DNA of 62,797 nt, filler included, from Stramenopiles sp. TOSAG23-6 (Eukaryota), in assembly GCA_900128565.1 (NCBI GenBank). It is 24 parts of 24 records of this genome, joined end to end, with 100 filler letters (N's around TTAATTAATTAA, not from the genome) between each part and the next. Parts side by side here need not be neighbours in the genome. Positions count along the whole stretch, not along the records: positions 36,765 to 39,282 come from LT637997.1; 23 more parts are not named here. One strand, 5' to 3'. The translations under genes and the position numbers were made by a program. The notes under the pieces were generated by a model, which was given only the letters and a program-made list of their open reading frames with translations, searched no databases and had not been told where the DNA came from. Below, piece by piece: positions 36,765-38,068 of this stretch; the stretch's first letter is position 1; every line of letters starts with the position of its first letter.

Positions 36765-38068
36765 TTCTTGAGTGTGCTAACGCTACATCATCTAAAGTTA
36801 ATACTCTACCATCATGATAAACATCATCCATAATTGGTTTTATACTCCCTTTTTCTATTAAAGGCCAAACTTCTTTAAAAAGTGCCGTTGCAAGTCTTGA
36901 TTTTGTTTCTATTTTTTGTGAACGTAATGTGGATCCAGTCATTGTTATTTGTTTCAAGAGTAATCGCATAATATTAAAGTTTTTAGCCACCGAGCCATTC
37001 CCCCCCATAAAACCAATATGAATCAAATGCCCATTTTGGCGTAAAATGTCGATATTGTTTTGTAAATGTATTTTGGGAAAATATTTTAAAAATTGATGAA
37101 AAATGTTTGGTAAAAGATTTTTTGTCAATTGATGTATTTGGAAAAAAATTTAAAAAAAAAATCTACATACATAATCACCACCCACCATATCAAGAATCAT
37201 ATCAACATTCTTACCACAATGTTTCACAATTTCCTCCTTGAAATCTTGTTTTTTATGTATTGCGAAAAAATATTTTTTTTGTAGTGTAAAAAAGTTGTTA
37301 GGAATAAAAACTTTTTACNAAAAAAAAAAAAAAAATAGGNAAAAAATTAGGGTTAGGGTTGATAGAAACATACATAATTTATAACTAATGATGCTCCCAA
37401 GTCTTCACATACTTTGCACTTTGTAGTAGATCCAGCTGTTGTTATAACATTCATGTATTTTGGGGAAATATTTTTAAAAAAATAAATCATTAGGTACAAA
37501 ATTTGCTAGAAAAAACAAATTCGAAAGTGAAGTGAATGTCGAAATATATTCCTTTTGCAACAGCCAGTTGGATTGCTGAAGTACCAATTCCAGAACTACC
37601 TCCATGAACTAATAGCGTTCGCCCAGGACTTAAAGGATTGGGGTTAGGATAATTTTCACATAAATTAAACCATACTGTGCTAAACGTTTCGGGAAGCGCG
37701 GCTGCCTCGCGCAAAGTTGTCCTACTTGGAACTGGAAGACAACATCGTGCAGGTGCAGCTGCAAACTCTGCATAACCACCACCAGCAATAAGAGTACACA
37801 CCTTTGCACCCTTCACAAGTTCCTTTCCATCAGCACCAAACAAAGGTTGACTAGGAGTTTGACATACAGTTCCTGATACCTCTAAACCTGGTATATCTGA
37901 AGCACCTTTTGGAGGTTTGTACATTCCTTGTCGCTGTATGACATCTGGTCTATTTATTCCAGCATATGCTACTTTTATAAGCACTTCTTGCGAATTAGGA
38001 ATAGGTATGGGTCTTCTCGTTATATGTAGCGCATTGGACATTATTTCAACAGCCTTCATCATTTTCAT
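36765..38068 (-). CDS. NAD(P)H-quinone oxidoreductase, PIG3/zeta-crystallin family (exons 37548-38068, 37374-37452, 37171-37254, 36765-37065; 3' partial)
   Basis: GINRPD..QR.G.Y.PP.GASDIPGLEVSG, HGGSSGIGT.AIQLA; spliced TTAGS..K..LGA..INYK..DF..DMVGGDYL. Confidence 0.95.
37066..37170 (-). other. Family intron AT|GTATGT...ATACAT
   Basis: Join DMVGGDY-LQNNI. Confidence 0.9.
37255..37373 (-). other. Family intron AT|GTATGT...ATACAT carrying telomeric repeats
   Basis: Join VINY-KKQDF; the first downstream AG would frameshift. Confidence 0.9.
37453..37547 (-). other. Family intron AT|ATATTT...ATACAT (neither GT nor AG)
   Basis: Join AKGM-NVITTAGS. Confidence 0.88.

Follow-up and report, generated by a model that had tools for sequence, protein, structure and literature searches.

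Few signals in eukaryotic gene expression are as constant as the AG at the 3' end of the intron. Large-scale loss of canonical intron ends is found in few lineages, namely Fritillaria, Amoebophrya, the euglenids and, for U12-type introns, Physarum, and each of these has informed our understanding of how the spliceosome co-evolves with intron-generating transposons. In Fritillaria borealis, for example, a review's account of the work of Henriet et al. (2019) describes an acceptor that derives from a duplicated exonic TAC (PMC11282704). Here we report on introns that end in AT in an assembly of the uncultured, AT-rich marine stramenopile protist Stramenopiles sp. TOSAG23-6 (GCA_900128565.1). Our analysis is centered on a quinone oxidoreductase (QOR) gene that lies on the minus strand of a 2518-bp contig (36765-39282) within a window of 62,797 bases. 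This window is made up of 24 contigs (2503-2534 bp, ordered by length) joined by N44-TTAATTAATTAA-N44 spacers (e.g. 36665-36764), and it is thus not one continuous chromosome segment.

The observation itself is real: exact excision of an insert is required at four junctions checked by homology, and one of these excisions is seen in poly(A) RNA. We hold with high confidence that the three inserts of the QOR gene are RNA-level introns with non-AG ends. AT-ended introns are a genome-wide feature within the sampled contigs and not a quirk of one gene; since the same odd intron type is present in neighboring genes, the organism seems to splice by an unusual rule. Our favored reading, which we regard as probable, is that these are transposon-like "introner" introns, spliced by the spliceosome with an AT acceptor in a GT-AT register.

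Three inserts in the quinone oxidoreductase gene

The first exon of the QOR gene encodes a GroES-like ADH_N domain (Pfam, 2.9e-12) and aligns with the solved quinone oxidoreductase 4dup_A (E 5e-35, query 14-172 against chain 43-191), while the fourth matches Pfam ADH_zinc_N at 9.7e-5, below the curated cut-off. With ADH_N followed by a Rossmann domain in colinear order, the host gene has the arrangement of a PIG3-type NAD(P)H quinone oxidoreductase of the MDR superfamily. The first-pass annotation of this DNA had claimed that three excisions are needed to read the gene, that none of the three excised segments ends in AG and that the first lacks GT as well, and had proposed an alignment of the spliced protein to PIG3-family homologues as a check. 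The alignment bears out all of these claims at the positions given in Table 1. Comparison with 12 homologues (53-59% identity over exon 1; some labelled PIG3 family by their source) becomes free of gaps only after removal of the inserts, whereupon the product of 328 amino acids, truncated by the contig end, passes all three junctions without a gap. Intron 3 brings in-frame stops from its seventh codon, and no AG is present near the 3' end of any of the three. Because AT precedes the donor and AT also ends the intron, the position of each QOR junction is ambiguous by 2 nt; a shift of -1 or -2 therefore gives an identical mRNA, and at -2 the intron reads AT...AC. The first-pass annotation had noted this alternative for intron 1, and it applies to all three.

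Table 1. Positions of the exons, introns, genes and contigs discussed, counted along the window.
Feature	Position	Strand	Description
QOR exon 1	37548..38068	-	ATG at 38068-38066; 173 codons + 2 nt
QOR intron 1	37453..37547	-	95 nt; ATATTT...ATACAT (AT-AT; AT-AC if moved 2 nt)
QOR exon 2	37374..37452	-	79 nt
QOR intron 2	37255..37373	-	119 nt; GTATGT...ATACAT (GT-AT)
QOR exon 3	37171..37254	-	84 nt
QOR intron 3	37066..37170	-	105 nt; GTATGT...ATACAT (GT-AT)
QOR exon 4	36765..37065	-	ends at contig edge
QOR duplicate contigs	39383..44518 (39383-41900 and 42001-44518)	-	gene and introns identical to 36765-39282
HECT-type gene	47237..49753	+	six complete family introns; HECT domain in last exon
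HECT introns	47590-47723, 47852-48022, 48127-48338 (GT-AG), 48843-48973 (ends AAAT), 49040-49140, 49254-49356	+	chain of open frames kept across 6/6
NO66/RIOX1-type JmjC oxygenase intron	55703..55797	+	95 nt; GT-AT, GTGTGT...ATACAT; Pfam JmjC_2, RIOX1_C_WH
WD40 gene introns	28928..29486	-	three GT-AT: 29486->29371 (ends TATAT), 29277->29178, 29028->28928; WD40 and beta-propeller matches
Family intron with canonical ends	12745..12876	-	GTATCT...ATACAG, preceded by G
Introns with a skipped AG after the T-tract	5541-5652, 47590-47723, 48843-48973, 49040-49140, 49254-49356

Canonical GT-AG pairs were tried for the QOR gene and rejected by homology, as none keeps both frame and colinearity. The sole 100% match in the protein comparison, over exon 1, is a public model, P0241 (243 amino acids; "GSMAST32.ASY1.ANO1.226.1 assembled CDS"), into which GT-AG pairs have been forced. 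As a consequence, 13 foreign residues appear at junction 1, conserved residues are missing at junction 2, and the model meets a stop within intron 3. This model is wrong, being truncated and non-colinear with the homologues at junctions 1 and 2, and other gene models of the assembly may be similarly affected. A full-length spliced QOR protein from RNA assemblies was absent from the protein collection, in which the best longer matches were 48-62% identical. Gene prediction based on GT-AG pairs will go wrong for many genes of this uncultured and ecologically abundant group, so that systematic errors may be present in the protein catalogues and intron statistics of such genomes.

Among public sequencing runs, the QOR stretch turned up in two small ones that may have been its source, in three seawater DNA runs belonging to a separate study and in metatranscriptomes of seawater; the runs that contain it are marine. 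We compared 37341-38200 with the contigs of three RNA runs (X6, X10 and X11) and one seawater DNA run (X3). A 267-nt contig from the poly(A) metatranscriptome run X10 matches 37374-37423 and continues with 217 letters that have no match in the compared stretch; the first 30 of these are identical to 37225-37254, so that 37254 is joined straight to 37374. This contig lacks exactly 37255-37373, and the predicted intron 2 is therefore absent from that RNA. RNA run X11 gave no contig on the compared stretch. The DNA contigs of X3 span intron 1 entirely and the 5' part of intron 2 and include no joined form; two of them that cover exon 2 and intron 1 show no differing letters, one having a 1-base gap. 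Depth over the core of intron 1 (37457-37543) exceeds that over the exons about 500-fold in DNA run X3 and about 100-fold in RNA run X6, an excess that marks the core as a high-copy repeat in the seawater samples.

These data bear on the suggestion that the inserts reflect elimination from DNA in the manner of a ciliate internal eliminated sequence, a dead or unexpressed gene copy, or an artefact of assembly. Short repeats at the borders, a fragmentary assembly from small sequencing runs and the presence of three identical contigs are all in keeping with such an origin. However, independent seawater DNA contigs reproduce the intron-bearing sequence without a joined form, and the joined form is seen in poly(A) RNA only, which is not the pattern of an internal eliminated sequence; moreover, the exons all keep their conserved residues and frames, and the inserts occur in the sense orientation only. 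We find this explanation scarcely credible. The three QOR contigs themselves follow one another at a spacing of 2618 (100% identity over a 300-nt reference copy in a repeat search), are of equal length and have identical first and last 30 bases, with a single N at differing places. The shared length, ends and gene, together with the shifted N, indicate that the apparent "three tandem copies" are assembly duplicates and not tandem genes.

A family of introns with matching borders

The three QOR introns belong to a family. Alignment of ten introns reveals three common blocks on the sense strand, GTATGTTTTA at the 5' end, TTTTGTACCTAAC internally and AAATATTTTTCCAAAATACAT at the 3' end, spaced by T- and A-runs of variable length. 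The 3' block, of 21 nt and ending ATA-C-AT, occupies 37453-37473 in QOR intron 1, 37255-37275 in intron 2 and 37066-37086 in intron 3; intron 1 also has a TACCTAA-type block at 37490-37496, and intron 2 contains (CCCTAA)2 at 37347-37358 and a single N at each of 37319 and 37340. The 3' motif CCAAAATACAT, with at most 1 mismatch, occurs 18 times in the window when the two duplicate contigs are counted, against 3.8 expected, and none of 100 shuffles reached 18. Among 27 close matches to the 3' block (at most 3 mismatches, duplicate contigs excluded), the triplet that follows is CAT in 17, TAT in 1 and AAT in 1; four have an AG-type end, three have other triplets and one has N. Contigs frequently end within copies of the family.

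We tabulated the 18 introns that have both ends inside a contig. Seventeen start with GT, mostly as GTATGT, with the variants GTAAGT, GTACGT, GTACAT, GTGTGT and GTATCT, and the exception is QOR intron 1 (ATATTT). The terminal dinucleotide is AT in sixteen and AG in the other two (48127-48338 and 12876->12745). The family thus has the GT donor of U2-type introns and, in 16/18 members, lacks their AG acceptor. A CTAAC-like motif (CTAA[CT] or CCAAAC) is found in 14/18 introns at 34-111 nt from the 3' end, and is followed by T-runs. The WD40 intron 29277->29178 is without the internal and 3' blocks, yet it too has ACAT at its end, which indicates that the AT end is not merely a property of the repeat.

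The borders of these introns follow a simple rule, in that the final intron base is identical to the exon base preceding the donor in 18/18 cases: T and T in all 16 that end in AT, G and G in both that end in AG. Random placing of the two AG-ended introns would produce this match with a chance of 1 in 153, a figure that rests on small numbers. Direct repeats of 1-5 nt are present at all 18 borders, a length too short to prove target duplication, and the introns carry a short terminal inverted repeat, (AT)GTAT(G)TTTT / AAAATAC(AT). The border match suggests that the acceptor is provided by a short duplication of the target. It had been claimed that the donor G is dispensable in some copies, with further non-GT starts at 10870 and 52933. 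This stands for QOR intron 1, one of the 18 tabulated introns, and is not confirmed at the other two sites. At 10870-10972 (+) the upstream open reading frame (ORF) meets a TAA within the first 10 bases of the element and so stops inside the supposed intron; the element may accordingly lie at the end of the gene or in its 3' untranslated region. At about 52830-52933 (-) there is a diverged copy of the family that ends ...ATACAAG, and its borders cannot be fixed, as several pairs keep the frame. These two sites might be exceptions to the border rule.

Family copies occupy introns of the QOR, HECT, NO66, purL, WD40 and Mo-co genes (Table 1). The NO66 intron provides the fourth homology-checked junction: against the solved NO66 structure 4e4h_A, the upstream exon matches to residue 263, and the match of the downstream exon begins with its 5th residue at residue 270, so that the two are colinear without a gap. 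Of the 18 tabulated introns, 17 are informative for frame, and in 14 of these removal preserves the longest open frames on either side; the 18th lies just 22 nt from the edge of its contig and is uninformative. The introns at 48843 and 49040, which flank an exon of 66 nt, can be accommodated only within the six-intron chain of the HECT-type gene. On the antisense strand no flanking ORF halves of this kind were found (0/17), the longest pair having 29 codons, and the copies lie in the sense orientation in 18/18 cases. Many similar copies thus form whole introns in unrelated genes, as is expected of introners and miniature inverted-repeat transposable elements.

Telomere-like (CCCTAA)2 repeats, of the kind present in QOR intron 2, occur at 31 sites of the window with at most 1 mismatch, against 0.08 expected (e.g. 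11313-12566 (-), 29257, 29462, 37347 and 49599). Many fall within a long minus-strand ORF at 11168-12790, and several lie 8-15 nt past an intron donor, in QOR intron 2 and two WD40 introns. Of the 31, 28 are on the minus strand; that this is the sense of the gene was seen just for the copies in ORF 11168-12790 and for those within introns of the QOR and WD40 genes.

Register and agent of intron removal

We infer the spliceosome as the agent of removal, the exact register of the cut and the origin from a transposon. The sense-only orientation of the copies, the canonical donor, the branch-like motif and the T-tract are strand-specific RNA signals and so point to the spliceosome; the same signals weigh against excision from DNA and against a cut guided by a hairpin. 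In the mechanism that we propose, the spliceosome would cut before the GT and after the final AT, with a YAT acceptor in place of YAG. The introns would thereby be GT-AT, and intron 1, having lost the donor G, AT-AT. Each sense-strand copy would offer a yeast-like donor, the branch-site-like TACCTAAC, a long T-run and the 21-nt 3' block. An element with GTAT...ATAC ends would insert on AT or AG, and the short target duplicate would become the acceptor; insertion of such an element with duplication is the most economical account of the origin of these introns.

The choice of register has to be weighed against a reading in which both cuts fall 2 nt further upstream and are made by either the major or the minor spliceosome, with A(+1) and C(-1) as end bases of known compatibility. 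U2-dependent AT-AC introns exist, as described in PMC1557818. AT precedes the donor in 12/16 AT-ended introns, the three of the QOR gene included, and it is because the predicted mRNA is identical that AT-AC remains a possible description of these three, in which AT and AC are invariant. The first-pass annotation had favored this register; the wider family lends it no support. Four of the 16 (47590-47723, 55703-55797, 52805->52705 and 29277->29178) have CT or TT before the donor and would turn into CT-AC or TT-AC introns, 48843-48973 would turn into AT-AA, and the two AG-ended members of the family do not fit, as they are plain GT-AG introns. The cut would, moreover, fall 2 nt upstream of a good GTATGT donor, and its last intron base would vary (C, T or A) next to an AT that does not. 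We therefore regard the AT-AC reading as unlikely. Three of these features speak for the GT...AT register: the base before the constant final AT varies in the order C > T > A, like position -3 of YAG, the four introns with CT or TT before the donor are accommodated, and the AG-ended members are ordinary introns of the same family.

Removal by a retuned minor (U12-type) spliceosome, comparable to the U12-type expansion of Physarum, would also permit such ends, as GT-AT and AT-AN introns can be spliced by U12-type machinery according to the account in PMC1557818. The donors begin RTAT and are T-rich beyond +6, one copy in 18 has GTATCTTT, which is the variant described for Physarum, and the inverted-repeat ends with a 2-nt repeat resemble the model set out for that organism (10.1101/2020.10.12.336362). 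Against this, the donor RTATCCTT is found in 0/18 introns, +5 is mostly G, which is a hallmark of the U2 type, and the introns contain a long T-tract. The interval 8-20 nt from the 3' end is devoid of any TCCTTAAC-like or TTTGA motif; the TACCTAAC block is placed farther away, 34-111 nt upstream. Consistent with the earlier remark that the U12 donor is lacking, ATATCCTT is not present at the three QOR introns. An Rfam search of the 62.8-kb window gave 0 matches and hence no minor small nuclear RNA, a result of little weight for 62 kb. A U12-type agent is in our view very unlikely.

Excision without a spliceosome, through pairing of the terminal inverted repeats, has been proposed for euglenids and discussed for the introners of Amoebophrya. 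The ends (AT)GTAT(G)TTTT and AAAATAC(AT) are inverted repeats, the minimum-free-energy structure pairs them in 4/6 folded introns, and direct repeats flank the borders as in the euglenid and Amoebophrya systems described in PMC7789003 and PMC11282704. The folds gain little in stability over shuffles, however: two of six reach modest z values of -2.0 and -2.8 and the other four lie between -0.7 and +1.4, with the ends of QOR introns 1 and 3 unpaired. Substitutions in the terminal repeats (intron 1, 48843 and purL) are never compensated, and neither the CAG/CTG positions nor the stable helix of the euglenid introns are found. In addition, the copies are restricted to the sense strand and keep donor, branch-like and T-tract signals. 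The structure-guided excision suggested in the first-pass annotation is thus unsupported, and we consider it highly improbable.

Several points weigh against spliceosomal removal of transposon-like introns in the GT-AT register. The end pair G(+1)/U(-1) is not known to be productive for the major spliceosome. RNA supports the junction of intron 2 only, one of the three, as no RNA contig reached junctions 1 and 3, and in run X6 (library selection 'other') a 362-nt RNA contig covering 37433-37793 retains intron 1; it could be pre-mRNA or DNA carry-over, and gives no evidence for splicing. A well-placed AG located 10-17 nt after TACCTAAC must be skipped in 5/18 introns to hold the frame, which is unusual if the 3' site is found by ordinary scanning, so that either TACCTAAC is not the branch site or the 3' site is chosen without scanning for AG. 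Use of the proximal AG was rejected for two of these five introns: in 5541-5652 and 48843-48973 the 30 extra nucleotides bring an in-frame stop (worked by hand). In 47590-47723 the 31 extra nucleotides would shift the frame (hand count). The purL intron at 51936-52067 continues in frame for just 13 codons, and its downstream exon has no match among solved structures. Within 52068-52245 (+) the frame compatible with the upstream exon ends after these 13 codons and another opens, beside the near-duplicate TTACAACAT / CTACAACAT; this could reflect another, very short intron, a frameshift or a fault in the assembly. As regards mobility, no empty site, insertion polymorphism or transposase was seen, the transposase having been looked for in the ORF list only. 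None of the 116 metagenome stretches listed for an 18-mer is a family copy, 14 having one of two weak marks and none the T-rich architecture of the family by eye, and a gapped two-block pattern gave 0 matches in metagenome contigs; among the contigs scanned, this organism is not represented. Instead of deriving from copies of a mobile element, the shared blocks could represent strict splice signals specific to this species.

We tentatively extend our reading to a wider proposal, which we offer as a serious possibility: the default last base of the intron may have changed from G to U, such that the major spliceosome uses YAU acceptors genome-wide while a proliferating GTAT...ATAC element makes introns on AT. 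If this were true, the terminal U could stand opposite G(+1) as well as A(+1), the tolerance of intron 1 to loss of its donor G would be accounted for, and new introns would arise at any AT that is hit, the 2-nt duplication itself being the acceptor. Given that the donor stays canonical and the acceptor alone is changed, the family isolates the second step, the choice of the 3' site, as the altered part, and it offers a clean natural test of the rule by which the first and last bases of an intron pair.

Composition of the window and relation to described systems

The window has a G+C content of 24-41% in 2-kb bins. Two contigs, 7900-10429 (-) and 34146-36664, stand at 40% G+C against about 25-36% elsewhere, and the first of these is a single uninterrupted dynein heavy-chain ORF; the raised G+C may reflect either coding density or DNA of foreign origin. 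The top match of this fragment, at 72% identity, is to unnamed marine sequences, and its closest named sequences are stramenopiles (oomycetes 64-66%, Ectocarpus 61% and a dictyochophyte transcriptome record 64%). Tandem repeats are present as 25-nt units at 4458-4679, as 9-15-nt units at 59877-60224, beside or within long ORFs, and as four 213-nt units at 60904-61729, inside ORF 60306-61778.

We found no literature report of AT acceptors as the main class in marine stramenopiles. Non-canonical splice sites are unmentioned in the available text of three papers on single-cell genomes of the stramenopile MAST groups (PMC5269757, PMC5778133 and PMC8163842), whose supplements may bear on the point. 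Among stramenopiles, a parallel is found in the introners of the pelagophytes Aureococcus and Pelagomonas, which, as presented in 10.1101/2021.10.25.465678, are likewise intron-sized, carry terminal inverted repeats and generate introns; in contrast to the family described here, the acceptor is AG in all cases reported there.

The U12-type introns of Physarum polycephalum share with ours the RTAT donors, the inverted-repeat ends and a direct repeat of 2 nt, and their non-canonical ends are commonly GT-AT and AT-AT in the analysis by Larue, Elias and Roy (10.1101/2020.10.12.336362). They retain the donor RTATC[CT]TT and, 10-12 nt before the end, the branch motif TTTGA, both of which are absent here. 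The nonconventional introns of euglenids, as reviewed in PMC11282704, have non-canonical borders, inverted repeats and border repeats resembling target duplications, as ours do; unlike ours, they are without a pyrimidine tract, have variable borders and form a stable helix by pairing of their ends, a helix that was not seen in our introns.

Amoebophrya is, like the organism studied here, a marine protist, and its introners have inverted repeats at their ends and short direct repeats at their borders; more than 60% of its introns are described as non-canonical, and standard gene finders fail on them (Farhat et al. 2021, PMC7789003). That report describes no dominant pair of terminal dinucleotides and states that U1 was not found, whereas GT-AT dominates here and donor, branch-like and T-tract signals are conserved. 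Fritillaria offers a further likeness, having many recent, species-specific introns with terminal inverted repeats in which a duplicated exonic triplet forms the acceptor; AT is among the commonest last dinucleotides (AG-AT), and the spliceosome is thought to be more tolerant (as summarised in PMC11282704). Its donors are themselves non-canonical (AG-AC, AG-AT), in contrast to the good GTATGT of our introns, and it is an animal and not a stramenopile protist. The introns described here are distinct from these known systems because their donor stays canonical and a single acceptor, AT, dominates.

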